Positions 305 through 19,023 of a stretch of DNA of 64,000 nucleotides are shown here, piece after piece. The position numbers and the translations under genes are program-made. The stretch comes from Gammaproteobacteria bacterium. Its GTDB lineage: Bacteria; Pseudomonadota; Gammaproteobacteria; DSM-16500. Location: assembly GCA_021156085.1 (NCBI GenBank), contig JAJNBC010000014.1, positions 310 through 64,309 on the forward strand, written 5' to 3'. Under the pieces are notes generated by a model that was given only the letters and a program-made list of their open reading frames with translations, was not told the origin of the DNA and made no database searches. How positions within the stretch are numbered: position 1 is the stretch's first letter; each line of letters begins with the position of its first letter.

Positions 305-751
305 ATGAAATTACTACGCCTAGGCGCCCGTCTACGCGCCGCTAGAAAAGCCGCTGGATTTAAAACAGCGAAAGCTTTCTTGAAAAAACACCACGTCCCT
401 GCCTCAACCTACTCGCAGCACGAATCAGGTGCACGCACGCCGGATGATCAAGCATTAAAATTTTATGCCAAGGTCTTTGAAGTGGATTTCAATTGGTTAA
501 AGAAAGGTAAGGGACAGCCTTTCAAAAAAATCACGGCCTTTAAAAAAGAAACACTCGCAGAAGAATCAATTGAGTTAAGCCGCAAGAATCCGATTGATGA
601 AGCACTCTTAAAAAAAATCCTAACCCGCTATATTAAAATTCATGCATCCCCATTCTCTCTCAGCTCCATTCATGTTATCACCGAAGCATCAGCTAGAGCG
701 TATTGTCAGCATACAAACCCTATACGATTTAGAGTAAAAAATAAAAATTGA
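305..751 (+). CDS. XRE-family (Cro/C1-type) helix-turn-helix transcriptional regulator
   Basis: N-terminal LRLGARLRAARKAAGFKTAKAF...STYSQHESG matches the HTH_XRE signature. ORF of 148 aa. Confidence 0.6.
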   Translation: MKLLRLGARLRAARKAAGFKTAKAFLKKHHVPASTYSQHESGARTPDDQALKFYAKVFEVDFNWLKKGKGQPFKKITAFKKETLAEESIELSRKNPIDEALLKKILTRYIKIHASPFSLSSIHVITEASARAYCQHTNPIRFRVKNKN

Positions 752-989
752 ATGAAAAAATAATTAGATATTACATGAGGATAGCTTAATCATCCGGCGA
801 GACCAATAAATCTAAGCGTAGGGCTGAATGAAATTTAATCAGCCCATATTTACTAACAAGCTGGGCTATTTAAAAGATTTAAGTCTCTCGATAGCCCCCT
901 TTTTTTTCCGGAAGTTAACCTATCAAGCTGTTATAAGAAGAACCCTGTGAGGGGCATTGAGGAGCCCCCCGGTGTTAATATAATTTTAC

Positions 990-1937: not shown

Positions 1938-2149
1938 TGTTTAATCCTCTTTGGGTATGCTTAATAAATACACAATTATAATCCTAAAAAATAAATTTGC
2001 AAATACGAGAGATACTCTCAAAGCGCTAGAAGTAGTGAGGGTAGTGAACTAACTAGGTGACCGGTTAGAAGCTATCCTTCATACGGAATAGGTCGCCTTA
2101 TCTTGCTGGGAGTATATGAGGTAAGACCCAGCTCATTTAGCTTTTTTTG

Positions 2150-2444
2150 CTATAAAAATCCTGTCAAAAAATCCAGTACCTTCGCATTCAATGACCACAT
2201 CAAACAAAACACAATCTGCTGTTCTGCTTCATATTCGGCAACTAATCGTAAGTTCAATTGCTTACGATTCATCTTCCGCCCATACCGATTTGCTATCCTT
2301 AACCACTCTTGAGCAATTTTTTCTGAAATACGCTTAGCTTGCGCTACATTTTTTAGTTGTCTAAATTCAAACTCTCTCACAGCTTGGGTAAGTAGAGCAA
2401 TTTTTTCTTAATGTCTAGCTGCGGAAACTTTACTATTTTTTCTT
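2150..2444 (-). pseudogene. Disrupted small HTH-type ORF, possibly a transposase OrfA-like fragment. An in-frame TAA separates MTQSRKNSKVSAARH from the 76-aa ORF.
   Basis: Reverse-strand translation shows ATG-15 codons-TAA followed by an in-frame HTH-like ORF (LKNVAQAKRISEKIAQEWLR). Family not assignable. Confidence 0.25.
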
Positions 2445-2590
2445 GATTGAGTCATTTGCATTATTCCTTTTATGCTTTAGTTGAGAGTTTATTATAGAAT
2501 AATTAAGTATAAATTGGTATATAAAAGTATGTCAATGAATTTTTTTATGGTAAGATACAGTTAATCAACCACCCGAGATGCAGGCGTTCA

Positions 2591-3232
2591 ATGACACATT
2601 CTCTAGCCATAAACAAGTCGGAAATTCATGAGATTTTGCAGCAGCTGATTCGATTTAAAGAAATCAGTGTCGCTGAACTCGCCAAACTAATCGGCCTACC
2701 TCAACCCACTATTCAACGTATTGCAGCCGGTGTTTATAAAAAACCCCATACTCGTACCCTAAAACCCATCGCGGATTTTTTTAATATCAGCATCAATCAG
2801 CTGAAGGGGTTCGAACCTATTCCATTTTTACTAACGAATAAAGTATTACATATGCTTCCTTTACTCACCCCAGAGCAAGCGCTTCAGCAGGCCGCTATAA
2901 AAGAAACAACGGAAAAAATTGCTTGTGATATTGTAATGGGCAATCGATCTTTTGCAATGTACATGCCCGATACCTCTATGGAACCCTTAATTCCCAAAGG
3001 TTCCACTTTATTAGTAGATCCCGATAGAACACCTCGGCATAGAAATTTCATTATTGTTAAATTGCATCATTATTCTGACATTCTTATCCGTCAGTTAATT
3101 ACGGATGGCAAAGAACTTTTTATTAAACCCTTGAGCCCTGACTTGCAATCTTTTAAAATGACCCTTCTTAATAAAAAAGATACTATTTTAGGCGTTATTG
3201 CTCAGGTCAGATTAAATTGCGAAGATTATTAA
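2591..3232 (+). CDS. cI/LexA-like repressor: N-terminal XRE HTH plus C-terminal S24 (LexA-type) peptidase domain
   Basis: HTH (VAELAKLIGLPQPTIQRI) at the N-terminus. C-terminal MEPLIPKGSTLLVDPD...IIVKL resembles the S24 autopeptidase fold. Confidence 0.6.
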   Translation: MTHSLAINKSEIHEILQQLIRFKEISVAELAKLIGLPQPTIQRIAAGVYKKPHTRTLKPIADFFNISINQLKGFEPIPFLLTNKVLHMLPLLTPEQALQQAAIKETTEKIACDIVMGNRSFAMYMPDTSMEPLIPKGSTLLVDPDRTPRHRNFIIVKLHHYSDILIRQLITDGKELFIKPLSPDLQSFKMTLLNKKDTILGVIAQVRLNCEDY

Positions 3233-3363
3233 AATAAGATGCATCGTTACAGGGAGTAAATATGTATAAAAATATATTAAATCTCAGCCTCTATTTCGAA
3301 TGGTTTTTAAAAAAATACCAAACACTGCAACAAGAAATTAAAAATATCAGCGCTTATCAAATA

Positions 3364-4100
3364 TTAGAAATAAACCAAAAAAGTAGACACGCTCGTTTCC
3401 ACTAGGTATTCATAATCTTTACTCAACCTGCGGTATTTATTAAGCCAAGCAAAAGTGCGTTCCACGATCCATCTTTTAGGCAGGACTTGAAAACCCTCCA
3501 TCAGCTTGATGCCACAACTCAGCAAGTAAGAATTAACGTCCTCTACTGCTTCCGGGACTCGATACCATTTTGACGGTCTTTTTACAATTTCAAGATTTCT
3601 ACCATAGTGTTTTACCATTGCTTGGGTCCGTTGACCGATGTACCCCATATCAGAAAAAATTAATTTTAAACGCTTCAAATGCCCATTTAATTTTTCTAAT
3701 ATATCTCTTAGTCCTTCTCTATCATTTCTATCTGCACTGGGACGGCTACTGACACCAAAAATCCTTGCGTATCCACTAAAATATGCCGCTTTCTGCCTTT
3801 AATCTTTTTAACGCCATCATACCCCTTGACCCCCCTTTTTCCGTTGTCTTAACGGATTGGCTATCGACTATCCCTACCGAAGGATCTTTCTTTTTCTTTA
3901 TCTTCAGCCGGATTTTCTCTCTTAGATAGTTTTCAAGCTCTACAAAAAAACCTCCATTTTTAATAGCCTGCTGCGCGTACCTGAGCTATTCTTAAACGGT
4001 CTTTTATGCCGCCTAGAAAGTCCTTGTAATTTTTATCCAAACGCCATGAGTCTTCTATTTTCTTAAGCTGTTTCTTCAGGAGCCTCTCCTTTTTTTATTT
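3364..4100 (-). mobile_element. Degenerate IS5-family transposase (DDE) remnant. The intact 104-aa C-terminal ORF carries the RWIVERTFAWLNKYRRLSKDYE motif. Upstream parts are frameshifted and stop-interrupted.
   Basis: ORF 3364..3678 has the IS5-family C-terminal signature. Reverse translation of 3680..4100 gives transposase-like pieces in several frames (…VSSRPSADRNDREGLRDILEKLNGH…). Confidence 0.6.
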
Positions 4101-4104
4101 GTTG

Positions 4105-4487
4105 AATTGCTACCACTTGAGCAGATTTTTGCGCTCCAATACACTTCAATAAATAATCGGTTATTGGCTGCATAGGCTTACGCAACCTCTCAAACGTCAG
4201 CGACGATATATCCTGCTGTAATGTCCCCATTCATTTTATGGTTAAGCAGCCTTTTCAACGCATAGGCAGGAATATCCCGGCTCTCAGCAACTGTTAGGAA
4301 CGTGCGGCGTGTGCGTCTTCATAAGGCGATGCGCCTTATTGCCTATATTTTTTTCAATCACAAAGCTTTTAGTGCCTGTAGCCGTCACACGCAGTGCAAA
4401 CCCCTTTAACTGGTCATCACGGTAAAATGCTTGGTCTTTATCAGTAGGAGCCTCAACCTTATTAACCCAGGCTTTTATTAGTTTCAT
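4105..4487 (-). pseudogene. Tyrosine integrase remnant (P4-type). N-terminal Arm-binding segment (KLIKAWVNK..TDKDQAFYRDDQLKGFALRVTATGTKSFV) fused out of frame to a C-terminal tail (…LNHKMNGDITAGYIVADVERLRKPMQPITDYLL). The catalytic core is deleted.
   Basis: 67-aa ORF matches the integrase DUF4102/Arm N-terminus. The downstream reverse-strand frame matches a typical integrase C-terminal tail. The catalytic domain between them is missing. Confidence 0.55.
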
Positions 4488-5436
4488 ATATCCCCTCTAT
4501 TTTTCATGTAGAACCAATGTCCAATGTAGAAAGACTGTTTAAAACCCATTAGAATAAATTAGAGCGGATAATAACACTTAATACTTTGAATATAAAAAGC
4601 TTTAATAATTAAATAGAAAAATGTAGAAACCATTAGAAGTATATATATTATAACTGTTAATCATTAGGCACTGGTTCGAGTAGTGAATACGTTTATTGTT
4701 TTCTTTAGGGCTACGATAACCGGTAACCATTCCTATTTTCGTTCTGTGAGCGTGTTGGATAGGCTCCCAGGTTAGAGTGTTATAAGAGAAATCAGAGGTG
4801 CTTTGCTTTCTCCCGCTGCTGCTTCTTGATTATTCTGCCGTGAGCCGTGATGATAAACCTAGCATAAAATTTTTTACTGAGGAAATAACCTATTTTATCT
4901 TTTTAAATTGCGCTATTATCATTTAATTTCTTTCAATTTGTCATTTAGCCAACTAATGGGACAAATTAAAATACCAAAATTAACGTATCAAATAGCTAAT
5001 ATTTTTGGTTAAATTTTACCTTATTTTAACTGATTATTTTTTTCTTCAACTTACTTCCTTTAAAATGCGCCCCTTCCCCCCAGCACTACGAAGCAATACA
5101 TTTCTAATCGATTGATTGCCGATGCTACGATTGATCGACCTAGAGATAATGTCTACAAGAATATTTTAGAGATGATCGTACTGACGAATAAAAATAAAGG
5201 AATAGTAAAAACTAAAAGTTAGTTTGAGAGGCTTTTGGCTATTTAAAAGTAACTCTTTTAGAACGCTGATTAACATACAATAATTAGCACATAATTTTTA
5301 TCTAAAAATTATATTATTAATATAAATTCTGATATTATTAATAAGTTAATATATAACTGTCACCATAAAAGTTTATTTTTAACTACGCTCAACATTGTAT
5401 TTTAATTCTATAATTTTTTGAAAAGAGGATAATAAA

Positions 5437-6165
5437 ATGAGTATCGCCGCAGAAGTAAAAAATGATAACCTCTTAGTTAGCAGCGTTGACTCATTGGAGA
5501 AATTTTTAGAGAAATGGGATGAAGAATATAGTAACAACATCTTATCTTTTCCCATATTTGATAAAGAAAAAACAAGTAAATGGACCATGGCTCAGCGGCA
5601 ATATTTCGTAAAAACGCTTTATCATGTTCGTGGACATTTCCACGATGTGCTTTGGTATATGGGAAATTTCGCGCCTAATAAGGAAATGAAAAATTTAATA
5701 CTCGACAATATTAAGGACGAGTTCAATGGAGATGGACTTTCTCACGAACTCTTATATTTGTTATTTGCTAAGGCGGTAAATGTAGATTTAACAGATGCTT
5801 CATTCACTGAAGAGGCTTATTTACCATTTATTAAAGAATTTAATCAAAGTCATTTAAAATGGCTGAGGAAACATGATTGGAATGAAAGATTATCTTTTTT
5901 TGCAGCCCTTGAAAGATTAGATAATACAGACTATGTACGGGGAAAAGAAATAGCAGAAAGTCTGGGATGTAAAAACAAAGATTTAGTTTTTTTTAACGTT
6001 CATATTCATGTTGAACACTTTAGCCGTATTTTAAATTACCTGAATAAAATATGGGTCGCTACACCAGAAAAAGTTAAAACACCCTTTTCTTTCATAAAAG
6101 AACACCATACTAAGATGTGGAAAAATCTTTCTGATACCATTTTTAATTATACAGGATTGAATTAA
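5437..6165 (+). CDS. Heme-oxygenase-like fold protein (TenA/PqqC/CADD-type 'iron-containing redox enzyme' family candidate)
   Basis: 242-aa all-helical-looking protein with spaced E/H pairs (…HVRGHFHD…, …DEFNGDGLSHE…, …NVHIHVEHF…) typical of HO-like di-iron/TenA proteins. Assignment is from motif pattern only. Confidence 0.35.
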   Translation: MSIAAEVKNDNLLVSSVDSLEKFLEKWDEEYSNNILSFPIFDKEKTSKWTMAQRQYFVKTLYHVRGHFHDVLWYMGNFAPNKEMKNLILDNIKDEFNGDGLSHELLYLLFAKAVNVDLTDASFTEEAYLPFIKEFNQSHLKWLRKHDWNERLSFFAALERLDNTDYVRGKEIAESLGCKNKDLVFFNVHIHVEHFSRILNYLNKIWVATPEKVKTPFSFIKEHHTKMWKNLSDTIFNYTGLN

Positions 6166-6171
6166 TAGCTC

Positions 6172-7467
6172 ATGTTAAAAAATATTCTTCATCTTGGAAA
6201 AAAAATAAAATTAAACATCGATAGAAGGGTAGAGAATTTTGGCGCACAATATATAGCTTTTGGAATATTTGGAATATTAAATTACCCTATTTATTATGCC
6301 ATTTGGAGTTATGGTGCCAAACAAACTTATGAAAGTTTATTGTTACGTGCTACAGCAACTATATTATGCTTGTTACTATTATTAAAGAATTATTGGCCAA
6401 GGAGGTTACAAACTTGGCTTCCCACTTACTGGTATATTACTCTCACATTTTGCATGCCTTTTTTCTTTACTTTTATGTTATTTAAAACTAATTTTGCACC
6501 AGTATGGCTAATGAGCACAAGTACTATCTTTTTCTGGCTTGTTTTGTTAGTAGATTGGGTAAGTTATATTGCTATTTTACCTTTAGGTATTTTTTTAGCC
6601 GGGGCATGTTATTATCTAGCTATTCCGCATCTTTTGATTAATGAAAATTATATGGACTATCTTGCTCAATATAGTGGCGCGCTTATCCTTGCTACTCTTT
6701 TTGCTTATAACAAAGAAAATTCAGAAAAATTAAAATTACAAGGTGTAAGAGCGGTCGGCGCTAGTATTGCACATGAATTACGAACACCATTAACTTCAAT
6801 AGATTTAGGGATTGCGGGTGCTAAAGAATACTTGCCTACGCTAATGGAAGCATACCTTACTGCAAAAGAACAGGGTATAGCTGTAAAACCCATTAAACCA
6901 AGCCACTATGAAACATTAACGACCTTACTAGATGACCTGCAAAAAGAGACGCAATATTCACACACGATTATTAATATACTACTAATGAATGCAAAACAAA
7001 ACTTGATCTCTGATAGTAATTTTAAATTATGCTCAATGAATGGGTGTATTAGTGACGCAATAAAACGCTATCCTTTTAAAGAGAAAGAACCAGAGCTTAT
7101 TCACTGGAACAGTCAAAATGATTTTATGTTTTATGGTGATCAGCTAGTCATGACACATGTCATTTTTAATTTGCTAAAAAATGCTCTTTATTTCATTGAA
7201 GCAGAAAGAAAAGGAGAAATTACGCTGTGGTATGAAACCAAAGAGGGTCATAATATTCTATGTTTTAAAGATACAGCCAAAGGTATTCCGGCTGCTGCTA
7301 TTTCTAAACTGTTTGATAGATTTTACAGTACTATTCCAAATGGTACTGGTTTAGGCCTATCGTTTTGTAAAATGGCTCTCAATAGCTTTGAGGGCGATAT
7401 CACTTGTAAATCTCGATATAGAGAATTTACTCAATTTGACATTAGTTTGCCGCAAATCAAAAATTAA
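6172..7467 (+). CDS. Six-TM sensor histidine kinase of CqsS/LqsS/LqsT type (HisKA + HATPase_c, no receiver domain)
   Basis: Six N-terminal hydrophobic helices with YY.IW.Y…QTYESL.LR and LPFFFTFM motifs resembling CqsS/LqsS. H-box ASIAHELRTPLTSI. C-terminal G-boxes (GTGLGLSFCK). Confidence 0.6.
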   Translation: MLKNILHLGKKIKLNIDRRVENFGAQYIAFGIFGILNYPIYYAIWSYGAKQTYESLLLRATATILCLLLLLKNYWPRRLQTWLPTYWYITLTFCMPFFFTFMLFKTNFAPVWLMSTSTIFFWLVLLVDWVSYIAILPLGIFLAGACYYLAIPHLLINENYMDYLAQYSGALILATLFAYNKENSEKLKLQGVRAVGASIAHELRTPLTSIDLGIAGAKEYLPTLMEAYLTAKEQGIAVKPIKPSHYETLTTLLDDLQKETQYSHTIINILLMNAKQNLISDSNFKLCSMNGCISDAIKRYPFKEKEPELIHWNSQNDFMFYGDQLVMTHVIFNLLKNALYFIEAERKGEITLWYETKEGHNILCFKDTAKGIPAAAISKLFDRFYSTIPNGTGLGLSFCKMALNSFEGDITCKSRYREFTQFDISLPQIKN

Positions 7468-7829
7468 CAAACAGGGCAAATCGGTGTAAAATATGAATTC
7501 GTCACAAAAATCTTTTAGGGTACTATCTTTGTTGGAAGAATAAATCGATTTTATAATAGGTAAATTTTCTTTATTCAGAATAGGCCTTTTCTCGGATGAT
7601 ACTTTTGGAGTTAAATCCCCTGTTTTTATACTTAAATATCTTGCAACAGTGCAGAAGAATGTACTAAAAAGCATTGCATCTCCTTTTTATAATTCTTTGG
7701 CAAGCAGTTTTAGCTCGTAGTTAAGCCACTATTTTATAAGGAGAAAATTCAAGAATATCCAGCATGACTATAATTTTTTGAACCGCTATAATAGGACATA
7801 GATGTTAACATTTATAAAGGAAGGCAAGC

Positions 7830-8822
7830 ATGAAGTGGTCTAAAGTCAGTCTGTGCTATTACCCAACTATTACTATTCTAATTGATGACAAGAAAAATTT
7901 TTTAAAAGAACTTGATTTAAAATTAAGCCATCAATTTTTCTACCGATTCTATACACAACCAGAAGAATTTATTGAATACATCAATCATCAATATTCATTT
8001 GATCCTTTCACTAACCGTTGTGTTTTCTTAGATAATGATGAGCTAGACCGTGGATCACAAAATATAAACATACGGATGATCCGTAATGAAGCCACTAACG
8101 AAAATCGTTTTTATCAAATATCAACATTAATATCCGATTATGCGATGCCAACTAAGAACGGTTTAGAATGCTGTCAATCCATCCCTGATAAATATGCCAT
8201 TACCAAAATATTATTAACAGGTCAAGCCGACAATAGCCTTGCGGTAGAAGCTTTCAATAAAGGTATTATCAATAAATTTATTCACAAATCGCCAAATGTG
8301 GCGCAATTAGTTAACTCCGCCATCTACGAAGCGCAAGTTAAATATTTCATAAATCTTTCCGAGAAACTATATGACATGCTCCCTGAAAGCACGACACAGT
8401 GTTTGACAGATCCAGCTTTTGCAGATTTTTTTTATAAATTATGTGAAGAAAAAAACATAGTTGAATATTATTTAACAGATGAGCGGGGTAGCTTTTTAAT
8501 GCTAGATATGCAAGGCAAACCTAGTTGGTTGGCAATAGCTAATGATGAGCAAATGGAAAGTTATTATGAAATAGCCCATGGCCATAAAAATGTATCGCCA
8601 TCGATCATGGATGGATTAAAAACCAAAAAAATGATAACTTATTTCTATACCGACGATGATTTAGATACCAGTGCAGCAGAATGGGAAAGTTACATGTATC
8701 CTGCCAAACAATTAACAGGGAAAGAAACTTACTATTACGCTTATATCGATAACCCGGATGCTTATGAGCTAGATCGTAATAACATTGTTTCTTATCAGCA
8801 GTTCTTACAAACAGAAAAATAA
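7830..8822 (+). CDS. Receiver-domain protein with C-terminal domain of unknown function (LqsR-like orphan response regulator)
   Basis: Receiver motifs ILIDD (acidic pocket), LISDYAMPTKNGLE (phospho-Asp about residue 103), ILLTGQAD and K-F-I-H-K-SP. No DNA-binding domain. Size (330 aa) and Asp position resemble LqsR. Confidence 0.5.
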   Translation: MKWSKVSLCYYPTITILIDDKKNFLKELDLKLSHQFFYRFYTQPEEFIEYINHQYSFDPFTNRCVFLDNDELDRGSQNINIRMIRNEATNENRFYQISTLISDYAMPTKNGLECCQSIPDKYAITKILLTGQADNSLAVEAFNKGIINKFIHKSPNVAQLVNSAIYEAQVKYFINLSEKLYDMLPESTTQCLTDPAFADFFYKLCEEKNIVEYYLTDERGSFLMLDMQGKPSWLAIANDEQMESYYEIAHGHKNVSPSIMDGLKTKKMITYFYTDDDLDTSAAEWESYMYPAKQLTGKETYYYAYIDNPDAYELDRNNIVSYQQFLQTEK

Positions 8823-8824
8823 AC

Positions 8825-9484
8825 TTAGCTTATTAATTCTGGTTTTCTTAACCAGATAATATAGGCCGCACTAAATAGCTGAACATTTTTAAGGGTAGAG
8901 AGTTTAGCGGATTGGTTAATGCCTATTAGCGTGTAGCAACCAGCTTGATCTCCTTTAGTCAATTGACGGACCACCGTTTCACCCGTTTTTAGTTGAATAA
9001 TGCAATTTAATCCCAACAATTTACTTATTTCCTGAGATTCAAAACAACGTGTCCCTGCGACGTGATCCCCTTTATTAAAACAAGGCTCCATACTGTTATC
9101 ATGAACAATCGTATCAATAGCATGAGGATGTAACTCGTAGAACAAAGCCAATTCTTGTGAAATGGTATTACCAGCTATATTTGGAAACACGTCTGCTTTG
9201 ATTTCGGGCAATTGTCCTTTACCGTATAATAGCCATTCCACGGTACAATTGATAACGCCTTCTTTTTTACAGGCGTTCACAATGCTTAAAGCGCCCTCGG
9301 CAGTCAAACCAGTATGACGCCCTTGCTCCCAGCTTTTTAAGGTAGAATCCTTGGTGTTGAATTTTTCACCAAATGCCCGTGAAGAATAGCGCAGAATTTT
9401 TCTTAAATATTTTATGCGGTTCCCTCGCTCTTTTTTTTCTAAATCAGTGACTTCCCGATGCTTCCTTCTCTTAATAATAGCCAT
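8825..9484 (-). CDS. Second cI/LexA-like repressor (XRE HTH + S24 peptidase domain)
   Basis: N-terminal HTH (IKYLRKILRYSSRAFGEKF…). C-terminal NSMEPCFNKGDHVAGTRC…IIQLKTGETVVRQL resembles the S24 peptidase. Confidence 0.55.
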   Translation of the reverse strand: MAIIKRRKHREVTDLEKKERGNRIKYLRKILRYSSRAFGEKFNTKDSTLKSWEQGRHTGLTAEGALSIVNACKKEGVINCTVEWLLYGKGQLPEIKADVFPNIAGNTISQELALFYELHPHAIDTIVHDNSMEPCFNKGDHVAGTRCFESQEISKLLGLNCIIQLKTGETVVRQLTKGDQAGCYTLIGINQSAKLSTLKNVQLFSAAYIIWLRKPELIS

Positions 9485-9662
9485 GTTTCTCCCTATTCTT
9501 TATATTTCAGATATAGCTAAAAGCTCACAACACATGGAGTTTTTAACGCCTATTCCAAAGACGATAATATCGTCTACCATGGCGAAAATGAGATAGAAAT
9601 CCATGGCGTTAGTATATCGAGCAGCCTGGACAAACAGCAAGCATCCCATCTAACAAGAGGTA

Positions 9663-10277
9663 ATGATTATGAATCGACCAAGACATCAATATGCTAATTA
9701 TATGTCGCTCAAGATAATAGAAAAGCTGGGCAACGAAGAGCCCACGGAGGCGCAAATTGCTTTCATGGAATCTATTTTAACAAAAATTACTCTTATTCGG
9801 CCTATTACTTTTCATCCACGACTTACTAATCAGGAAATAGTGTGCTTGTATTGGGCGGCACTCGGCAAGACCTCCAAAGAAACGGCGGCCTTGCTTAAGG
9901 TACAGCGAAGTACGGTAGAAAAACACCGTAAAGATATCAAGAAAAAACTACATTGCAAATCACTGGTGGAGGCTGTTTTTAAAGGCATTCAATTGGGATA
10001 CGTCGAACCCGCCCTGCAATGTGAATTGTCACAACAACCTACAGAAGATAGGAGCCATGATAACAACACAAATTATTTAACGTTAAGTCATTCACTCCGT
10101 ATACCGCTAACCGAAATTTTAGGCACGCTTGAATTGCTAGATCATCAGGATTTATCTCCTATGCGAAAAGAAGAAATCAATGCCATTCAGCAAGTAGGTA
10201 AACGATTGTTAACTATTGTTGACAAAATATTAGTGAGCAACAAAGGTGAAGATGAAAATCATTTTTTTATTTCTTAA
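9663..10277 (+). CDS. Chimeric regulator: LuxR/GerE-type HTH followed by a HisKA-like dimerisation/phosphoacceptor helix. No ATPase and no receiver domain.
   Basis: LTNQEIVCLYWAALGKTSKETAALLKVQRSTVEKHRKDIKKKL matches the LuxR HTH signature. LSHSLRIPLTEILGTLELL is H-box-like, with the His conserved. Confidence 0.45.
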   Translation: MIMNRPRHQYANYMSLKIIEKLGNEEPTEAQIAFMESILTKITLIRPITFHPRLTNQEIVCLYWAALGKTSKETAALLKVQRSTVEKHRKDIKKKLHCKSLVEAVFKGIQLGYVEPALQCELSQQPTEDRSHDNNTNYLTLSHSLRIPLTEILGTLELLDHQDLSPMRKEEINAIQQVGKRLLTIVDKILVSNKGEDENHFFIS

Positions 10278-10371
10278 CTAAGGGGCTATTCAATAAAAAA
10301 TTAAACTAAAAATCCTAAATTAAGGCCCCCCCTGAAATCGAAGAAAAATACTGTGTACTCCTCGCCTTAGA

Positions 10372-10544
10372 GGTAAGGTAGAGCGCTCTCATGGTCGTGA
10401 TAAAGAAGAATTTTATCAAATGATGCAATATAAAAATGATATGGATTTAGAGAAAAAATTCGTAAATGGGAAAATATTTACAACTACATCCGGCTTCAAA
10501 GGAAAAACACCTTATGAAGTTTTAAAACAAAAAATTTCAGGGTA
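10372..10544 (+). pseudogene. C-terminal fragment of an IS481/IS3-type (retroviral-integrase-like) transposase: GKVERSHGRDKEEFYQ…GKTPYEVL
   Basis: Translation of 10372..10544 gives the conserved GKVER(F/S)…KEEF…KTPYEV tail of rve-type transposases. No upstream reading frame remains. Confidence 0.4.
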
Positions 10545-10586
10545 GAATTACTTTATCAGTCAAGGTATAAATATACGCAAATTAAT

Positions 10587-11036
10587 ATGAATTTACCCAT
10601 AATTAAAGATTTGAATATATCTCAGCTTGCTAACGCCCTATCCGGATTAGCAACAAAAGGTAGGCTAGCCATATCTGATAACAATCTTGTTTATCTTGAT
10701 ATTTCTGATCATTATATTAATCGATTGTTTTTATTTTTAGAAAATCAGAAAATAAAAAAGCCTGATTACTTTGGTATTGGAGGGATTGGTGCACATATCA
10801 GTGTTATTTATCCAGAAGAAAATATTGGGATAAATAGGGATGATGTAGATAAGGAGCATGAATTTAAAGTTAAAAGCGCTTTTACAGCCGAGATCGGCCT
10901 CAAAAAATATTATGCGTTAAAAGTCGATGCTCCTTCCCTCCTCTTATTAAGAAGGAAATACCACCTATCTGATATGCTGCCATTCAAAGGATATTCCATT
11001 AGTTTTCATATAACCATAGGAGTGCAGCGCCTATAG
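10587..11036 (+). CDS. Small 2H-phosphoesterase-like protein (two H-x-S/T-x motifs: H70-I-S-V and H141-I-T-I)
   Basis: 149-aa protein with two HΦ[ST]Φ tetrapeptides about 71 residues apart. This is the LigT/CPDase/Acb1 superfamily hallmark. No signal peptide. Confidence 0.35.
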   Translation: MNLPIIKDLNISQLANALSGLATKGRLAISDNNLVYLDISDHYINRLFLFLENQKIKKPDYFGIGGIGAHISVIYPEENIGINRDDVDKEHEFKVKSAFTAEIGLKKYYALKVDAPSLLLLRRKYHLSDMLPFKGYSISFHITIGVQRL

Positions 11037-11086
11037 GCTGGTAAGAACAGGACATTATCACAAGATACATGCCCTGTTTTTTTACC

Positions 11087-11557
11087 TTATTTCTTGATAT
11101 TTAAGTTTTCAGGCAAAGCATAGAGATTTTGAGCATTTGAGGTGCTAATTTCTACAAGGGCAACCGGATAAGCACCATTATATTCATCTCCCGCTTTAGA
11201 GAAATCAAGGGAGTAAACACAATTGAAAGAATAAGAAGATGGGTCTACACGTGTAGCAGTAGGCTGCTGGCTCACAGCTACAGAAAGTGCATCTTTTACT
11301 TTTTGAAGAGCATTCTCTGGACCAGTCGCCTTCACCCCTCGAACATAAAAAGTATAATAGCTATCACTCTTAATTTGATATTCGGTGGAAACATTATATC
11401 TGTTTTTACCTGGAGCAGGTTCAACTTTTTTTAAAGCAAGATTTTGAATTTCGGCTAACGAGGGACATATACTGATTGCGTCATTATTAGCCATTGCAAG
11501 TGAGCTAACAGCTAATATACTTATAGCGAAAAGGCATGGACAAAATGTTTTTTTCAT
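11087..11557 (-). CDS. Secreted hypothetical protein (Sec signal peptide)
   Basis: N-terminal MKKTFCPCLFAISILAVSSLAMA signal sequence. 156 aa. Confidence 0.45.
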   Translation of the reverse strand: MKKTFCPCLFAISILAVSSLAMANNDAISICPSLAEIQNLALKKVEPAPGKNRYNVSTEYQIKSDSYYTFYVRGVKATGPENALQKVKDALSVAVSQQPTATRVDPSSYSFNCVYSLDFSKAGDEYNGAYPVALVEISTSNAQNLYALPENLNIKK

Positions 11558-11967
11558 ATATTCACTCCATAGTATTACTAATAATTTATGCCACCTACAA
11601 TATAAAAAAATCTTCCTCTAAAAGCAACCCCCTTGGCTCTTTTCCACATTGCCTCAGTTTTTATTTTATTATCTACCTATCATAACTTAATTAAAATTAA
11701 CCGCCCTATTTCTTACATTCCTATTTTATTAAAACTTATTTTTCTGCACATCAAGAAAATGCTGTGGAAGAAAGGCCACTGCACAGAGCTGCATATCTTA
11801 CCATTACATCCGAGAGTTCTAGAATCATCTTCTTCTCCCTTATCCTTATCTTTATAAATGATATAAAAAGAAGTACAATGAAACGACGTGCATTGAAAAA
11901 AGAATAAGCGTGATAAAATATTACCATAACGTATTTTCAATATATAAATAGTAGCAGAGGAGGTAAC

Positions 11968-12444
11968 ATGAATATATACACTTATCTGAAAAAAGACCAT
12001 CAGAAGGTTAAGCAGTTATTTAAAAAAATAATCTTAGCTAAAACATCCAAAGAAAGAGAAAATTATTTCTTAGAGATAAGAAAGGAGCTGGAATTGCACG
12101 CTACTTCAGAGGATGCTACTTTCTATAAAGCCATAAAAATTAATTCCAAAAATAACAAAATAGTAGAGCATGCTGAAGAAGAACATGCAGAAATCAAAAA
12201 ACTTCTCTCTAAATTAAGTAAAATTTCTTCTAAAGAAACAGCCATATGGCTGGTAAAATGTGGAGAATTAAAGTACGCTGTTGAGCACCACGTGAAAGAA
12301 GAAGAATCTAAAATATTTGAAAAATCCAAGGAAGTCCTGTCTGAAGAAGAAGCTGAGAAATTAGCAGTTAAAATAAAAGAATTAAAAAGTAATATGGCTA
12401 AATCCAGTCTTTTTCAGAAAAAATTTAAAAAGCTAAAAAAATAA
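11968..12444 (+). CDS. Hemerythrin HHE cation-binding domain protein
   Basis: Spaced H/E motifs (HQKVKQ…E, HATSEDATF, VEHAEEEHAEIKK, VEHHVKEEE) typical of hemerythrin-like proteins. Good RBS (ggaggtaacATG). Confidence 0.5.
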   Translation: MNIYTYLKKDHQKVKQLFKKIILAKTSKERENYFLEIRKELELHATSEDATFYKAIKINSKNNKIVEHAEEEHAEIKKLLSKLSKISSKETAIWLVKCGELKYAVEHHVKEEESKIFEKSKEVLSEEEAEKLAVKIKELKSNMAKSSLFQKKFKKLKK

Positions 12445-12583
12445 AAACATAGCTCTTAGCTCTAGAACATGGTAACGCTAAGAAAGAGTAGCACGGTAGA
12501 AAATTTTGCCTTTACTTAACTTTAGCAAAAAAGGAAGATATCTCTTTTCTTTCACATATAAAATTTCTTTAATAAATTTTAGT

Positions 12584-13048
12584 ATGAATAAAAAATTTAA
12601 TCCTGACAATTACCCATGGAAATCTAATATAAATTATCGTCTACATAAAAACTTATATAAAGTAGGTAAAGGCGAACAAGGGGTCTTATTATGTCAGCCT
12701 TACAAAAGCGAAATACTTTTATATTGGAAATTTCGGACGCCTCAGCTCGCGAAAATAAGTGCAGAAAAAATTTATTCCCTCTTTTTAGAGTATCTTGAAC
12801 AGGATGACTTTCCCGGCGCAGATATGGCACGTAAATTTTTACAAATGGGATTTACACGTGCCCGTCGTTACGCCAATTATAAAGGAGGAAAAAAATATGG
12901 AAAGGATAGAAATCATCTTTTACCTAAAGGAACAGGAGAACCCCTTAAAGCGCAAAGCGCTCGTATCTTTTATAAAGCTTGGCAGCAAGCAGAAAAAAAT
13001 AAAAAATACAGTTTAATGAAAGAAGAATGGAAAAAAATAATGGGATAA
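12584..13048 (+). CDS. Conserved hypothetical protein, DUF4385-like (VGKGEQGVLLCQPYKSEIL…ADMARKFLQMGFTRARRYANYKGGKKY)
   Basis: Motifs recalled for a widely conserved domain of unknown function. Start chosen at MNKKFNP inside the longer ORF 12506..13048. Confidence 0.45.
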   Translation: MNKKFNPDNYPWKSNINYRLHKNLYKVGKGEQGVLLCQPYKSEILLYWKFRTPQLAKISAEKIYSLFLEYLEQDDFPGADMARKFLQMGFTRARRYANYKGGKKYGKDRNHLLPKGTGEPLKAQSARIFYKAWQQAEKNKKYSLMKEEWKKIMG

Positions 13049-13306
13049 AAATTTTGGGAGTATGAGAAAGTAAAATTGCATCAGTGAATTTACCACAAGC
13101 TACATCCAACCTATTTTTGATTTCCTGACTTGAGGACAACAACTCTCCTTTTTGCGATTGAAGGTAGCTTCTGATTAATTTCCCTATTAAAAACCTAAGA
13201 TTAAAAGCTACCCAATTTATTATATTAAACCCACCCAGGCGTCATGACGCGCCTGCCCTTAATGCATGTTTTACTTTATTTTATGTCTCTGCTAGTAAGA
13301 TAAGCT

Positions 13307-14782
13307 TTAGCTATGGGTAAGTGTGGGCTTTTTATTAGCACTACCCTCCCCCTTCAGAGAATCTCCTACGGATTGCTCAGCCGATCTTTTACTGGTAGAT
13401 CTTTTACTATGCACTCTAGAAAATACCCCTGTTTCTTGGGTACTTGCTTGGGAAGAGTGCAGCCTTAGTTTTCTATTCATTTCTTTAAGGCATCCAGAAA
13501 ATTCTTCATCTATCTCCCTATGCAAACCTAATTTTTTAGTCAATCTTTGAATATTTCCTAGGGGATCTACACTAAAAAGGTTAAACCTACCTAATTCTAG
13601 TTCTCCTGTTTTAGACAACTTGAGCATTCGGACAAGATCAAAGCAATAAGAAGCAGGACCGCAGCACTGCCTTACGCAATTCAAACTCACTAAAATATCT
13701 GCTATTAATCGTTGACTTTTACACACGCCCGAGATACGAAGAGCGCGGTCTAAGTTGGCTTGAAAATCATTTTTCTGTAATGGCGACAGCTTTTCATTTC
13801 TAGCCATTATTTCTTTTAAGCTAGAATAAGATTCTTTTAATGCTTTGCGGTGTTCTATTAACTCTTCATCAGATACATTTTCTTTTTTAAAAGCATCGAG
13901 AACAGAAGAGTCTAATTTTTCATCGCCAGCTAATAATAATTCTTCCATTTTTCTACATTGTTTTGCTAATACCTTTTTATTCACTTCTTCGTGAAAAATT
14001 TCTTCATCATAATCTATTATTTTTTTCTGTAAATCATAGAAAATCGCTAACTGTTGACAGGTTTCTGGATAAAATTCTTTATCGAAGTTCGTCATCCAGG
14101 CATTGTCATCAAACAAATCCCCTTCTATGTAGGGTGTAATAGGGAGAGCAGATTTAAAAGCCGAATGAAATGCGCCATAGTAGTGCATTCTTATCGCACA
14201 TTCTACAAGAAATTTCTCTGACATGATTGCGGTAGAAAAATCTTTACCCTTTTCTTTTGCAAGGCTTAGGATGCTATTTCTGATTCCTTCTAAGCCACCA
14301 GCATTGCTGATGATCACATCACGATGATGATTATATAAATATTGGAGCGTTTTAGTGACATTTGCGGTGCCTTCATAATAAATGAGATCCATTTTTTTAA
14401 GCAGATCAGGTCTTCGTAGACCCACTTCATAAAGAACCATTTGGGGCGCCGTATCAGCCCATTCATCTATATTTTCTCTGTCTAGCATCTCAATGATAGC
14501 ATCAATGCGGTCAGCAGGGACTTTAGGAAGTGGTATTTCATCATGTTCTAATCCTAGATCAGCGCCCAGCAAATAACGCGGTCTGGGAAATTCTAAATAA
14601 TCCAACTTAGATTGAATGAAATTGTTATTTTCTTCTGCAGATAAAAGACCTGTAGTGCGGTTTGCTGTAGTGATAATGGCAACAAGAGATCCTTTAGTAA
14701 GGAAAACCATAGAGCAACCTTTATCATCTGATTCTCCATCCTGATGATGGACGACTCTCTTTTGACGCAAATTCATAAGCAT
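13307..14782 (-). CDS. Large hypothetical cytosolic protein (491 aa), effector-like, no recognisable domain
   Basis: Long ORF with a polar/Ser-Lys-rich C-terminus. AT-rich accessory context. Confidence 0.45.
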   Translation of the reverse strand: MLMNLRQKRVVHHQDGESDDKGCSMVFLTKGSLVAIITTANRTTGLLSAEENNNFIQSKLDYLEFPRPRYLLGADLGLEHDEIPLPKVPADRIDAIIEMLDRENIDEWADTAPQMVLYEVGLRRPDLLKKMDLIYYEGTANVTKTLQYLYNHHRDVIISNAGGLEGIRNSILSLAKEKGKDFSTAIMSEKFLVECAIRMHYYGAFHSAFKSALPITPYIEGDLFDDNAWMTNFDKEFYPETCQQLAIFYDLQKKIIDYDEEIFHEEVNKKVLAKQCRKMEELLLAGDEKLDSSVLDAFKKENVSDEELIEHRKALKESYSSLKEIMARNEKLSPLQKNDFQANLDRALRISGVCKSQRLIADILVSLNCVRQCCGPASYCFDLVRMLKLSKTGELELGRFNLFSVDPLGNIQRLTKKLGLHREIDEEFSGCLKEMNRKLRLHSSQASTQETGVFSRVHSKRSTSKRSAEQSVGDSLKGEGSANKKPTLTHS

Positions 14783-15141
14783 AGCCTCCGATTAGATTTT
14801 GATTTTCTAATATTTAGCATATTTTTCACACCTGGAACGCGCGCTTATGTACGTCTGTAAAACCACCTTTAAGTAGCGCCTTCCCTCTGACGGACTTAAT
14901 AATACTCTTATTTCTTAATTCAGCAACACCTAAAATTTTTTGAGAGCTGGTGAGTGTATTTTTTACTTGACTAGCATAATCAGAAGCAGATTCGAAAGGG
15001 AGAGCGTTGATTTCATCATAGAGAGACTCTCTTGTTTTTCATGTTTACTTCCGCTATCTTATTTTTTGGTAGAAAAAGACAATGCGAGCTAAATGCCATT
15101 TTTTATTTAATATTTTACTAAAATTAAAGAGGAGTAGAAAT

Positions 15142-15921
15142 ATGAACTTAAGAAAGATAGAAAAAGCATTAGGAAAGGGAAATGAATCAAATATGAGTGT
15201 GCAAGAGCCTACAGTTCATTTTAATATAATTAATTCGGAGAGTGGAGAAATCCAAAATTATAAATTTAGCGGCGCATTACGCGAAGAAAAAGAAGATATA
15301 GCAGACCAAGCAAAGGAGCTTTTAAGATTATATGATATTTTGTCAGATAAAGAGCGCTCCCATCTGCTCTGCGCTTTCCCCGCTAATTCTCTTCTCTTGG
15401 AAAAACTTGCTTTCTCTGCTGCTGAAAACAATGATATTAACCTTATTCAAAAGTTAGCAGAAGCACAGTTTAATTTTAATAGGCCCAGAGATTTCTACAA
15501 TAGAACACTTTTACATATCACTACTGAACGCAACGCTGAACTGGCTGTTAAAGAGTTACTTAAATATATGGACACAAATACTATTGAGGTAAAAGATGGA
15601 AATAGTCAAACAGCATTAGATCGTGCCGTTTTGTTATGCTATCCCTCCCTTCTTGAAGCACTCTCTGAAAAAGCAGCGCTACCTCAAATCCAGAAGGCAG
15701 CTTACTTTTTACCTCTATGCCTGCAAAGAAGCCAAGAAGCAGTTTTCCAAATGGTGACTCTACTTCATAAAAAGGGCGCTCAATTCAGTAAAGACATGCA
15801 GGATCAAGCCAAAGAGCTTGATCATAATGGATATATACTTGACGCTATAAAAAAAGCAAAAGAGATAGAGCAAGAAAAAGGCCCAGCCGACGAAGTACTT
15901 CTTCCACCAGCTCTACATTAA
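15142..15921 (+). CDS. Ankyrin-repeat protein (eukaryotic-like)
   Basis: Ankyrin-like repeats (NRTLLHITTERNAELAVKELLKY…DGNSQTALDRAVLL…). Start at MNLRKIEK inside ORF 15082..15921. Confidence 0.5.
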   Translation: MNLRKIEKALGKGNESNMSVQEPTVHFNIINSESGEIQNYKFSGALREEKEDIADQAKELLRLYDILSDKERSHLLCAFPANSLLLEKLAFSAAENNDINLIQKLAEAQFNFNRPRDFYNRTLLHITTERNAELAVKELLKYMDTNTIEVKDGNSQTALDRAVLLCYPSLLEALSEKAALPQIQKAAYFLPLCLQRSQEAVFQMVTLLHKKGAQFSKDMQDQAKELDHNGYILDAIKKAKEIEQEKGPADEVLLPPALH

Positions 15922-15960
15922 GATTAAGGATGAACAAAAAAGAGAAGATAGATCTGTCCC

Positions 15961-15992
15961 GGGGTTCCCTCCTAGAGGAACCCCTTTCTCTA
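15961..15992 (+). terminator. Rho-independent terminator after the ankyrin gene (GGGGTTCC-loop-GGAACCCC + T tract)
   Basis: 8-bp perfect stem followed by TTTCTCT. Confidence 0.5.
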
Positions 15993-16408
15993 AATGCTGC
16001 CAAACTAAGAGGTATAAAAATCCCCAATAAAACCAATCATTGAAAAAAACTCCCTCCCCTCCGTGGGTTTAGACAAAAAACACGGCTCTTTACTGCAACC
16101 AGAATACTGAATCAAACGAAGAAAACCATAACACCCTGATTATTAAACACATTAAATATCATAAATATTGTCTATACTGCTCATAAGCATCCTGTATTTT
16201 CCCCTGCATAAAAGAGAATGAGTATGCATGCACCTTATCCTAACAGCCGAAATTCAGCGAAGTTGCTTCTCTACAAAATGCCAAAATAACCTCCCCCTCC
16301 TATTTCCTTGATTATAGCCATATTATTGTTTATATATTTTACAAAACCTCGTCTATACTCCTATTTATGAACATCATTGTGATTAACCTATTTAAAGGAG
16401 AAATTGCC

Positions 16409-18133
16409 ATGAAACCTAGAAAATCTCTACGAGAAGCTGTCATTGAAGACTCCCCAATCCCCGAATATACGCCTGCTGAAAAAGAAAAAGCTAAGGAAGA
16501 ATTCCTGGACCAACATCGCCAACAAAGTTTTATGCAAGAATTCCTTCAACAATCTAGGGAATCTCTTGGTTATGTAGTAGAAACAACTACAGAAAAATTA
16601 AAAAACACTAAAGAAACAGCTTCAAAAAATATTGAAGAAGCTGCAAAAGTTGTCTCTGAAAGCAAAGATGCCGTTGCCGCTCCTTTCAAATTTGTATATG
16701 ACATGGCGAGTCAATCCACCGAAGAATTAAGAAATACCGCAGAAAAATTACTTGCACAAAATAATAAAGAAATGGCCTTTGCCTATTTTTCTGTGATTAA
16801 AGAACGTGGAGAAGATTTAGGAAATCAATTCTCTGGACCTATTAAAACAGAGTATCTTTGTGACGTTATCATACGTAACAGTCCTGAATGGCTTAAAAAT
16901 CACATAGGAGAAGAAAAAATTCTCGAATTTGCTGTCTCATTAATCGCTACACACGCATCCCCTACACCAGAAGAGATTAACCAGTTAAATTTACTTCGCA
17001 ATAAATGCCTAGAGATAGCTCATACTAATGCCGCTACATTTCACAAATTTTGTAGAAAAATAAATCCTCTTTATTTAGAAAGGGCGCTGGGCAATGTCTA
17101 TATGGTCCGCATCCAAGTGGAATTAGCTAGTGAAATATTAAACTATATGAATGCTAATGCGCCTCTCGACGCCTCAAGTGAAGAAGACACGATAGAACAA
17201 ATAAAATTTCCACTAATACGGCACAAATATCATGAAAATTATTTTATCAATATAAAATCTGTTATTATGCAGCTAAAAGCAGACAAAGAAAGAGATCGCC
17301 TAGAAAAAATTGCTCAAGCGGAGGAGCTTGCATTTCAAAGAAAAATAGAACGTCAAAAATGGAGAGATCATTCTAAAAAAGCATCTGAAAATAAACTAAT
17401 TAAAAAAACTAAAAAAGCACAACCCGCTAAAGAACAAGAGCAAGAAGAAGAAAAAAAAGAAGAATATCAAGAGGAAACCTTAGAACAAAGAAGAATAAAT
17501 GCACGAGAGAATATTATGGCTTATCAGGAGAAATTAAAACAAAAATATGCTGAAAAAATAGGAGAACACGAGCAACAAAGAATGGAGAGCACCAGATCCA
17601 ATCGACAAAATAAAATGGATAGAGAACACCGGGAAATTTTAAAGAACTTACAAGAATCTATCACGATACAAATGGAAGAACTCAGCGGAAAGACAGATCA
17701 AAGCTCACTTAAGACACTAGCAGCACTTCAAGAAATCCAAGAGGCTTTAAACATAAAAACACTTCCGGCACCGGGTGGAAAATTAGAAATCACCCTATCG
17801 CCTTACGATAGATTAGCCCTTGTCCAAAGAAAAATAATAGATGTCGATAAACGCTTATCTAGCGAGTTAGATCAGGCGGGACTTTCTCATTGGCAGACTT
17901 TCGGGAAAGTCACTGTAACTGCCCTGATCGGAAAGATAGCTACAGCAACAATGCCAACAGTAGGGATTCCATTAGCTGTGGGATTAGGAGGGATAATAGC
18001 ATATGCCAAAAATAAATTTGGTACTCATAAAATTTGGTCCCCTGGGGCATTAGCAACAGGTAAAGCGAAAAAATCAGTACAAGCACTTACTGAAAAAATG
18101 GAGGCTCCTAAAGAAAGTCCCAAAAATAAATAA
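16409..18133 (+). CDS. Long coiled-coil, Lys/Glu-rich protein with C-terminal hydrophobic segment (effector-like)
   Basis: 575 aa. Central EEKKEEYQEE/KQKYAEK low-complexity coiled coil. C-terminal TM-like ALIGKIATATMPTVGIPLAVGLGGIIAYA. RBS aaaggagaaattgccATG. Confidence 0.5.
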   Translation: MKPRKSLREAVIEDSPIPEYTPAEKEKAKEEFLDQHRQQSFMQEFLQQSRESLGYVVETTTEKLKNTKETASKNIEEAAKVVSESKDAVAAPFKFVYDMASQSTEELRNTAEKLLAQNNKEMAFAYFSVIKERGEDLGNQFSGPIKTEYLCDVIIRNSPEWLKNHIGEEKILEFAVSLIATHASPTPEEINQLNLLRNKCLEIAHTNAATFHKFCRKINPLYLERALGNVYMVRIQVELASEILNYMNANAPLDASSEEDTIEQIKFPLIRHKYHENYFINIKSVIMQLKADKERDRLEKIAQAEELAFQRKIERQKWRDHSKKASENKLIKKTKKAQPAKEQEQEEEKKEEYQEETLEQRRINARENIMAYQEKLKQKYAEKIGEHEQQRMESTRSNRQNKMDREHREILKNLQESITIQMEELSGKTDQSSLKTLAALQEIQEALNIKTLPAPGGKLEITLSPYDRLALVQRKIIDVDKRLSSELDQAGLSHWQTFGKVTVTALIGKIATATMPTVGIPLAVGLGGIIAYAKNKFGTHKIWSPGALATGKAKKSVQALTEKMEAPKESPKNK

Positions 18134-18151
18134 AATTTCCAATTAAAATTA

Positions 18152-18231
18152 GGGTCTGTTGACAATTCGCTAGGCGGAACACCGAAAATCAAAATCTTAT
18201 ACCTAGCCTAGTTAAGATCGTCAACAGACCC
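18152..18231. repeat. Palindromic MITE/REP-like element, copy 1 (about 24-bp imperfect terminal inverted repeats GGGTCTGTTGACAATTCGCTAGGC … GCCTAGTTAAGATCGTCAACAGACCC)
   Basis: Inverted repeats read directly. The TTGACAATTCGCTAGG core recurs at 63271..63290 in inverted orientation. Confidence 0.5.
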
Positions 18232-18593
18232 TAGGAGCAATTCTTATAATGAGTCGTCGTTAAGCAGATATTAGAATCGATTATTCGCAAACGCTTCCTA
18301 TCTCCTTTATCTTTTTCTTTTATCATAATCATTAACTAATCAGAAAAAATATTTCTGGGGCATTGAGCCCCCTATCACCCAAAGAAGTAAAAGACTATTA
18401 TAGATTTTCATATGCCACCTGCCCAAAAAAATCACTCAACGTATGCAATTCTTATTTACTATTTAAATTTTAATGGACAGTGATTAAAGAATTCAGCTAG
18501 GATAAGGGGGAATCTCATTTTGAGATCTTAAGCAAATGTTTAAATCGAGAAAAAATACTCGAAAATTTTCGTCAACTTAAAAAGGAGAAGAAT

Positions 18594-18977
18594 ATGAGAA
18601 ATTTACTACTAATAGCATCCATTGTTTTTTTATCTTTTCTCAATAGTGAGATGGTTTTTGCAGAAAATAATGGAGATTTATGTATTGCTTTATTTAATGC
18701 TGATAAAAATCCGGTGCAGTTTTCCCCAGGCATGGGCGATGAAAAAATTTATATTGTTCAACCCAATCAACACGTAACACTGTCTAGAAGGGATATGAAA
18801 ATGGCTTGTCCTTACACCCCCACCAGCTGCTATGTAGACATCTCTTCCCCCGGAGAAAATAACTATCGCACTATTTTTAATCTAAGCAGAGGCAGTCGCA
18901 TTATCTATAAAGGGTGGGATGGTAACCAGCATTACTATGACATAAATCCTCGCGCTACTGTACCATGTGTTTCTTGA
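18594..18977 (+). CDS. Small secreted Cys-containing hypothetical protein
   Basis: Signal peptide MRNLLLIASIVFLSFLNSEMVFA. 6 Cys. RBS aaaggagaag. Confidence 0.45.
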   Translation: MRNLLLIASIVFLSFLNSEMVFAENNGDLCIALFNADKNPVQFSPGMGDEKIYIVQPNQHVTLSRRDMKMACPYTPTSCYVDISSPGENNYRTIFNLSRGSRIIYKGWDGNQHYYDINPRATVPCVS

Positions 18978-18990
18978 GATAATTAAATAC

Positions 18991-19023
18991 TGTACAGGTT
19001 CTTCTCTGAGCAGAACCTGTACA
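18991..19023. terminator. Bidirectional terminator hairpin (TGTACAGGTTCT-9 nt-AGAACCTGTACA) between convergent genes
   Basis: 12-bp perfect stem seen in the sequence. Confidence 0.55.

Follow-up and report, generated by a model that had tools for sequence, protein, structure and literature searches.

The 2H superfamily is characterized by two strands bearing an HxT/S motif, which together make up an active site that works without a metal. This site resolves the 2',3'-cyclic phosphates of RNA ends, nucleotides and ADP-ribose>p, and some 2H lineages instead cleave 2'-5' oligoadenylates or cyclic oligonucleotides (PMC9503650). The described systems considered here are phage Acb1 (T4 gp57B; PDB 7t27 and 9q2y), the LigT/ThpR proteins (E. 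coli ThpR, PH0099 1vgj, drCPDase 5h7f and YjcG 2d4g), MHV ns2 (4z5v), rotavirus VP3 (4rpt), AKAP7 (2vfk) and the penguinpox cGAMP PDE (9bkq). A further member of the superfamily, the 2H-SAK domain, was reportedly defined computationally by Burroughs and Aravind in NAR in 2016, and its name derives from multidomain RNA-repair proteins.

We analysed a gene for a 149-aa protein located in a 64,000-nucleotide stretch of gammaproteobacterial DNA, the whole of which is referred to as the window. The gene had been described from the sequence as an orphan 2H-phosphoesterase-like gene of Acb1/LigT size, with a possible role in degrading host or phage-defence signalling nucleotides, lying beside an IS481-like remnant in an AT-rich island and possibly acquired horizontally. 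Judged by its sequence, the gene is predicted to encode a genuine small 2H phosphodiesterase that belongs to an already catalogued family, Pfam 2H-SAK.

Identification of the 2H-SAK Protein

The coding sequence of the 2H-SAK phosphoesterase occupies positions 10587..11036 of the forward strand, from an ATG start to the stop codon (included), and encodes a standalone protein identical to MCD6040033.1 from a Gammaproteobacteria MAG. A search of Pfam using hmmscan gave a single match, PF22547 2H-SAK "Swiss Army Knife 2H phosphoesterase domain" (E 9.6e-14), with a score of 52.1 bits against a gathering cutoff of 27. The match covered aa 36–147, with both predicted catalytic motifs inside, and spanned profile positions 2–119 of 124, which indicates that the full domain is present. 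A word-seeded search gave 111 homologues at E <= 1e-3, all of which were precomputed as PF22547. A profile search of 1.84 billion cluster representatives gave 1291 at E <= 1e-3 and 746 at E <= 1e-10, and among the matches listed from this search 120 of 120 were precomputed as PF22547. With this family match and these homologues, the label of orphan does not apply. The orthologues of Legionella fallonii and L. beliardensis carry the UniProt label 'Swiss Army Knife 2H phosphoesterase domain-containing protein'; the annotation itself is thus unremarkable, since databases already label the family in Legionella, and its value is that of a pointer.

The 149-aa protein had no match in NCBIfam and none to the Pfam LigT family even at E <= 10, and searches of PDB sequences with the single sequence and with the family profile returned only noise, such as adenosylhomocysteinase and VP1. 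Literature searches on SAK, 2H-SAK and PF22547, on 2H or Acb1 with Legionella, and on protein accessions gave nothing on the 2H-SAK family, and no enzymatic data for any 2H-SAK member were found in the searchable literature.

The two motifs reported in the original prediction, HISV near residue 70 and HITI near residue 141, were confirmed exactly by a regex scan, which found the pattern H-Φ-[S/T]-Φ only twice in the protein, at residues 70 and 141. The first predicted catalytic motif, H70-I-S-V (10794..10805, forward strand), lies in the conserved block G68-A69-H70-I-S-V-I-Y75..E78. The second, H141-I-T-I (11007..11018, forward strand), lies in the context F-H-I-T-I-G, and the protein stops 5 residues past it. 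When the protein was shuffled 100,000 times, just 0.2% of the shuffles had two or more such motifs. A lack of conservation of the two histidines among homologues would have refuted the original prediction, but both H70 and H141 were invariant in an alignment of 45 sequences with identities down to 32%; the motif pair is therefore not a product of chance. The other invariant residues of this alignment were G25, P59, G68, A69, I71, I74, Y75, E78, F93, L118 and R122, and I142-T143-I144-G145 were at least 90% conserved. In a wider alignment of 62 sequences, to which the jumbo-phage and extra chlamydial members were added, G68, H70 and R122 were still invariant and H141 was at least 90% conserved. 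R122, encoded at 10950..10952 of the forward strand and located in helix 116–124, was thus invariant in both alignments.

Of 380 domain copies, a regex count recognized motif 1 in 365 and motif 2 in 366. Part of the shortfall stems from the position cut-off, and part reflects genuine loss from the first copy of tandem proteins, such as that of the second His in P0269 (NFSIRIG) and in P0270 (NFCIRIG), a change in sequence that suggests a degenerate regulatory or binding copy.

Predicted Structure

The fold was predicted from the alignment using AlphaFold2 with a pLDDT of 93.6 and a pTM of 0.88. The model shows a strand-strand-helix…strand pattern twice, and the last strand of each repeat opens with a predicted catalytic His (E70–74 and E141–148). 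The protein is thus modelled as the duplicated alpha+beta fold of the superfamily with one HxT/S strand per lobe, each of which would face a central cleft, and its two H-x-T/S-x motifs, one per domain half, are conserved among homologues. No similarity between the two halves was detected at the sequence level. In regards to the original prediction, its core inference of a 2H fold was right. The assignment to this fold is solid in the model, with a similarity that is moderate and with no subfamily prominent, and the two histidines would be apposed.

A Foldseek search against the PDB gave no significant match (E >= 0.1, with Mediator and lipocalin noise). Against BFVD, three matches were significant (E 2.7e-5 to 4e-4), and all three were uncharacterised proteins of amoeba giant viruses, namely Orpheovirus A0A2I2L4M2, Pandoravirus A0A2U7UH36 and Yasminevirus A0A5K0UAJ9. 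The phage "SAK 2H" and Acb1 models in BFVD matched weakly, the Acb1 models with E values of 0.08 to 0.5. That the giant-virus models outscored any phage Acb1 model hints at gene sharing in the amoeba 'melting pot'.

Comparison with Described 2H Systems

We compared the family profile with T4 gp57B (Acb1) and E. coli ThpR, both taken from annotated records, using hhalign. The probabilities were 1.4% for T4 gp57B and 0.2% for ThpR, and the short alignments paired an HxT strand with the HxT strand of the opposite lobe. These results indicate that the likeness to Acb1 and ThpR is limited to the fold and the catalytic motifs and that the window protein is a member of neither group. 2H-SAK is the sole Pfam match, and there is no specific tie to anti-defence enzymes such as Acb1.

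The window protein differs from phage Acb1 in having an identity of 15% and no sequence-profile relationship to it, and the gene is located on a bacterial chromosome, in contrast to the phage-borne Acb1 genes, and not on a mobile element. In comparison with the LigT/ThpR proteins, it is 20–35 residues shorter and its family is taxonomically restricted and patchy, with the negligible profile similarity given above. The Pfam search revealed no sequence-level relationship to MHV ns2, rotavirus VP3, AKAP7 or the penguinpox cGAMP PDE. Acb1, LigT, ns2 and the poxvirus PDE resemble the window protein at the superfamily level only. Unlike the eponymous multidomain SAK repair proteins, the window protein is a bare, unlinked single domain.

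Distribution of the Family

Loci were collected by a GTDB scan seeded with the peptide [IAV]GAHI[ST]VIY, which biases the sample towards the clade of the window protein and misses divergent members elsewhere. The 52 loci comprised 16 from Chlamydiae, 10 from the Legionellales lineage, 14 labelled only as Gamma- or Proteobacteria, 3 from Verrucomicrobia, 1 from a "Rickettsia typhi" MAG and 1 from Acidobacteriaceae, the remaining 7 being without a taxon label. The Legionellales loci were from Legionella brunensis, L. worsleiensis, L. moravica, Tatlockia, Legionellaceae, Legionellales and Coxiellaceae, and the chlamydial loci included Parachlamydiales, Simkaniaceae, Rhabdochlamydiaceae and Waddliaceae. 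In the wider profile search, all six source names that gave an organism were Chlamydiales, Parachlamydia or Protochlamydia, and most of the metagenomic homologues were nameless. The named close relatives thus come nearly all from intracellular bacteria that associate with amoebae and belong to two unrelated phyla.

Identity clustering separated two large groups, one of 165 domains that includes the window protein and one of 164 domains with the chlamydial forms. In the cluster of the window protein, 164 of the 165 domains had no signal-like N-terminus, as judged by a signal flag that is stricter than the hydrophobicity heuristic and undercounts relative to it. By that heuristic, 119 of 358 homologues had a Sec-like N-terminal signal, and nearly all of these were 160–220 or 320–380 aa long. 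A signal peptide from Parachlamydia, MLKSFIQKLFVLVVLTTSLVSPAFA followed by AVDYQ…, is an example. The chlamydial proteins P0097, P0101 and P0318 (~199 aa) and P0255–P0270 and P0112 (343–527 aa) combine a classical Sec signal peptide with an acidic C-terminal tail, and in many chlamydial relatives the whole 2H domain is present in two or three tandem copies. The Legionellales-type proteins, on the other hand, start at the first strand of the fold, with 0–8 residues beyond the matched domain among the examples listed, and the window protein is likewise a bare domain with neither a signal peptide nor a C-terminal tail. The relatives from intracellular bacteria thus contrast in predicted export in one phylum and a bare domain in the other. 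Since the chlamydial relatives are predicted to be Sec-exported, the 2H-SAK family would not be intrinsically cytoplasmic.

Conservation of the Gene Neighbourhood

We clustered the ORFs within ±5 kb of the gene at 56 loci, which consisted of the window, three contigs (L001–L003) that an exact look-up of the protein had retrieved, and the 52 GTDB loci. The 2H gene was the sole family common to the 56 loci, and the next most frequent was a generic ABC ATPase found at 6 of 56. The contexts of L001–L003 were unrelated, as were the neighbours in the window. Since no neighbour was conserved across the 56 loci, the gene lacks a partner of the ligase, kinase or CD-NTase kind; in particular, genes for RNA ligase, polynucleotide kinase, KptA and RtcB were not linked to it. 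In the longer relatives (340–670 aa), Pfam recognized only the 2H-SAK domain, in two or three copies, and neither a fusion nor an operon with a ligase, kinase or phosphatase, as in SAK-type RNA repair, was found.

PADLOC gave no defence-system match at the 2H gene. Among its four neighbours there was one weak match, to CARF3 (E 0.005), on a 204-aa GerE/HisKA protein. With conserved partners and an adjoining defence gene both lacking, an RNA-repair operon, a CBASS-type system and a toxin-antitoxin pair are all disfavoured. In several species the gene is situated between housekeeping genes on the bacterial chromosome, and tblastn searches of GenBank phages and PLSDB plasmids gave no match to the window protein.

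Distant Branch in Jumbo Phages

Ten IMG/VR contigs of 5–494 kb (L056–L065) encode proteins 27–33% identical to the window protein, with the 2H gene at about 4833..5480 of each locus. At 9 of the 10 loci, the 2H gene and the large terminase gene form part of one co-directional block, in which the terminase lies five ORFs upstream (counting ORFs of at least 120 aa); in L062, the locus whose genes were scanned, the terminase carries a LAGLIDADG intein. The genes between the terminase and the phage 2H gene had no Pfam or PHROG match, and the sole PHROG match was phrog_12204, labelled unknown function (E 3e-4). This branch shows that the 2H-SAK family also occurs, as a distant branch, in viral conflict settings.

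Proposed Function

The preferred reading, which we consider likely, is that the gene encodes an intact standalone 2H-SAK enzyme that is probably active, is cytoplasmic and acts alone, with a role tied to protist life. We infer the catalysis, substrate, cellular location and biological role of the protein as follows. Since all the catalytic hallmarks are intact in the sequence, an active enzyme would be expected. H70-I-S and H141-I-T would each provide the H-x-T/S strand of one domain half, and a ribose-linked phosphodiester would be attacked without a metal, with the two histidines as general acid and base. R122, to judge from its invariance, may hold the phosphate or contact the substrate. 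Most likely, the enzyme would open a 2',3'-cyclic phosphate, carried either by a nucleotide or by the 3' end of an RNA; less likely, it would cut 2'-5' or 3'-5' bonds in oligonucleotides that are short or cyclic. We rank 2',3'-cyclic phosphates above signalling oligonucleotides because their resolution is the commonest 2H chemistry, because no ligase partner was found, and because the exported relatives stand outside ATP-dependent repair. The protein would act alone in the bacterial cytoplasm; this is the most likely setting because signal peptide, C-terminal tail and partner genes are all lacking, the location being read only from the absent signals. The role is probably tied to life inside protists, because the clade is common to Legionellales and environmental Chlamydiae.

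Nucleotide salvage or clearance is a possibility that we put forward tentatively. The enzyme would convert RNase-derived 2',3'-cNMPs or short RNA>p to linear monophosphates, in the periplasm of Chlamydiae as an analogue of CpdB and in the cytoplasm of Legionellales. Such a role is consistent with the intracellular, nucleotide-scavenging life of the carrier lineages, with the exported chlamydial forms, which can have no place in ATP-dependent RNA repair, and with the lack of ligase or kinase partners at the 56 loci. However, the patchy occurrence even within Legionella would be unexpected for core metabolism, and no nucleotidase or transporter was conserved beside the gene at these loci. If the substrate is a 2',3'-cNMP or RNA>p, a salvage or repair enzyme would be added to the biology of Legionellales and Chlamydiae.

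It is unlikely that the enzyme, or at least its clade, is directed at the host, that is, delivered outside the bacterium to destroy a nucleotide signal or RNA of the protist as a counterpart of ns2/VP3, the poxvirus cGAMP PDE and Acb1. The concentration of the clade in phylogenetically distant protist-associated intracellular bacteria points in this direction, as do the top viral structural matches in the amoeba giant viruses and the Sec signal peptides of the chlamydial members. The neighbours are also effector-like: the window contains an ankyrin-repeat protein (15082..15921) and large orphan ORFs of 491 aa (13307..14782, reverse strand) and 588 aa (16367..18133, forward strand), both without a Pfam match, and LRR and Pkinase-like proteins are encoded in L001 and L003. 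The window protein itself, however, has no Sec signal or C-terminal extension, and its end, 5 residues past HITI, is too close for a disordered C-terminal Dot/Icm signal of the canonical kind. It was not a named effector in the literature or databases searched, and we know of no 2-5A or cGAMP pathway in Amoebozoa.

A role of the window protein in degrading host or defence signals is speculation to which the present results lend no support. In an extended form, which we regard as decidedly unlikely, the clade would be a lifestyle-specific tool traded among Legionellales, environmental Chlamydiae and perhaps giant viruses, which destroys a host nucleotide in or around the replication vacuole. 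Candidate targets there would be a second messenger of host immunity or the 2',3'-cyclic nucleotides that RNases produce. If this were true, a vacuole-directed enzyme would be a bacterial analogue of viral Acb1, poxin and ns2 and would point to an unrecognised nucleotide-based defence of amoebae; a host signalling nucleotide as the substrate would define a new axis of host-microbe conflict in protists.

We give a low probability to RNA end-healing, in which the enzyme would open the 2',3'-cyclic phosphate ends of toxin-cut tRNAs or rRNAs before religation. The family name and the Pfam description favour this function, and the jumbo-phage branch fits the theme of phage tRNA repair. Furthermore, 2H enzymes are the usual route by which 2',3'>p termini are resolved ahead of KptA or ligase steps (PMC9503650). 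Nevertheless, the RNA ligase, polynucleotide kinase, KptA and RtcB genes that would accompany it were neither present at the 56 loci nor fused in the longer relatives, and Sec-exported relatives cannot repair cytoplasmic RNA.

An Acb1-type protein that counters CBASS or other cyclic-oligonucleotide defence from a mobile element is highly improbable: the size is similar to that of Acb1, an IS remnant adjoins the gene and distant relatives lie near packaging genes in jumbo phages, but against it stand the hhalign result for T4 gp57B, 2H-SAK as the sole Pfam match, phrog_12204 as the sole PHROG match, the lack of matches in GenBank phages or plasmids, the chromosomal position among housekeeping genes in several species with no prophage structural genes nearby, and the lack of defence or counter-defence neighbours (56 loci; PADLOC).

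Genomic Region

The 2H gene has no paralogue within the window. Downstream, it is convergent with a reverse-strand gene (11087..11557) whose 156-aa product begins with a signal peptide (MKKTFCPCLFAISILAVSSLAMA) and was matched by neither Pfam nor PADLOC. Between the two genes lies a hairpin followed by a U-run (11040..11086, forward strand), a probable intrinsic terminator according to RNA folding. The hairpin, which follows the 2H stop codon and speaks for the preferred reading, has a folding energy of -17.5 kcal/mol and a z of -3.6, and 0 of 200 shuffles folded as well; a simple terminator scan did not call it. We also considered the 156-aa secreted protein as a partner of the 2H gene and rejected it, as it was not co-conserved at the 56 loci. 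A promoter scan gave a candidate, TTTAAA-16-TAGAAT at 10521–10548, that was no better than chance.

Upstream, the C-terminal remnant of an IS481-family transposase (10336..10545, forward strand), which is not part of the enzyme, was identified from its translation and by tblastn. The translated stretch (…GKVERSHGRDKEEFYQ…GKTPYEVL) showed 52–55% identity to annotated IS481-family transposases (E 2e-12), and the 69-aa fragment had no Pfam match; the transposase remnant comprises 62 aa. The neighbouring IS481-like remnant described previously is therefore real, and it marks a past insertion or deletion just upstream of the 2H gene. Ahead of the remnant, the domain search identified a gene (9663..10277, forward strand) for the above-mentioned 204-aa protein with a GerE/LuxR HTH and a HisKA domain and without HATPase_c; this gene ends about 60 bp before the remnant.

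The GC content was 0.34 for the 2H gene, 0.358 for region 1–19000 and 0.401 for the rest of the window. In regards to the proposed AT-rich island, the lower GC content of the gene and the region stands, but the contrast with 0.401 is modest. Horizontal acquisition, which had also been proposed, is plausible because the region is flexible and contains two transposase remnants and because occurrence across Legionella species is patchy, although the contrast in composition is modest. The second transposase remnant, DDE_Tnp_1_2, is located at about 3364..3678 on the reverse strand. The 2H gene is probably an accessory gene transcribed on its own, within a flexible part of the chromosome of ~19 kb.

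This region also encodes two cI/LexA-like repressors. One, at 2591..3232 on the forward strand, has HTH_3 and Peptidase_S24 domains according to the domain search; the other, at 8825..9484 on the reverse strand, has a weak HTH match and an S24 'DNSMEP' motif recognized by eye only. No prophage structural genes were found near the 2H gene or near either repressor. A co-directional trio at 5437..8822 on the forward strand encodes a haem-oxygenase-like iron redox enzyme (PF14518), a histidine kinase and an atypical 330-aa response-regulator-like protein, and may be a redox- or iron-sensing module. The GerE/HisKA gene looks like an unusual sensor/regulator truncated by an IS event. A hemerythrin and a DUF4385 protein are also encoded in the first ~19 kb, and the contents of region 1..19000 are typical of the effector islands of Legionellales-like bacteria. 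From lpxK/msbA onward, the window is ordinary chromosome with dnaX, a Mur ligase gene, metG, yhdP, RNase G and gatAB.
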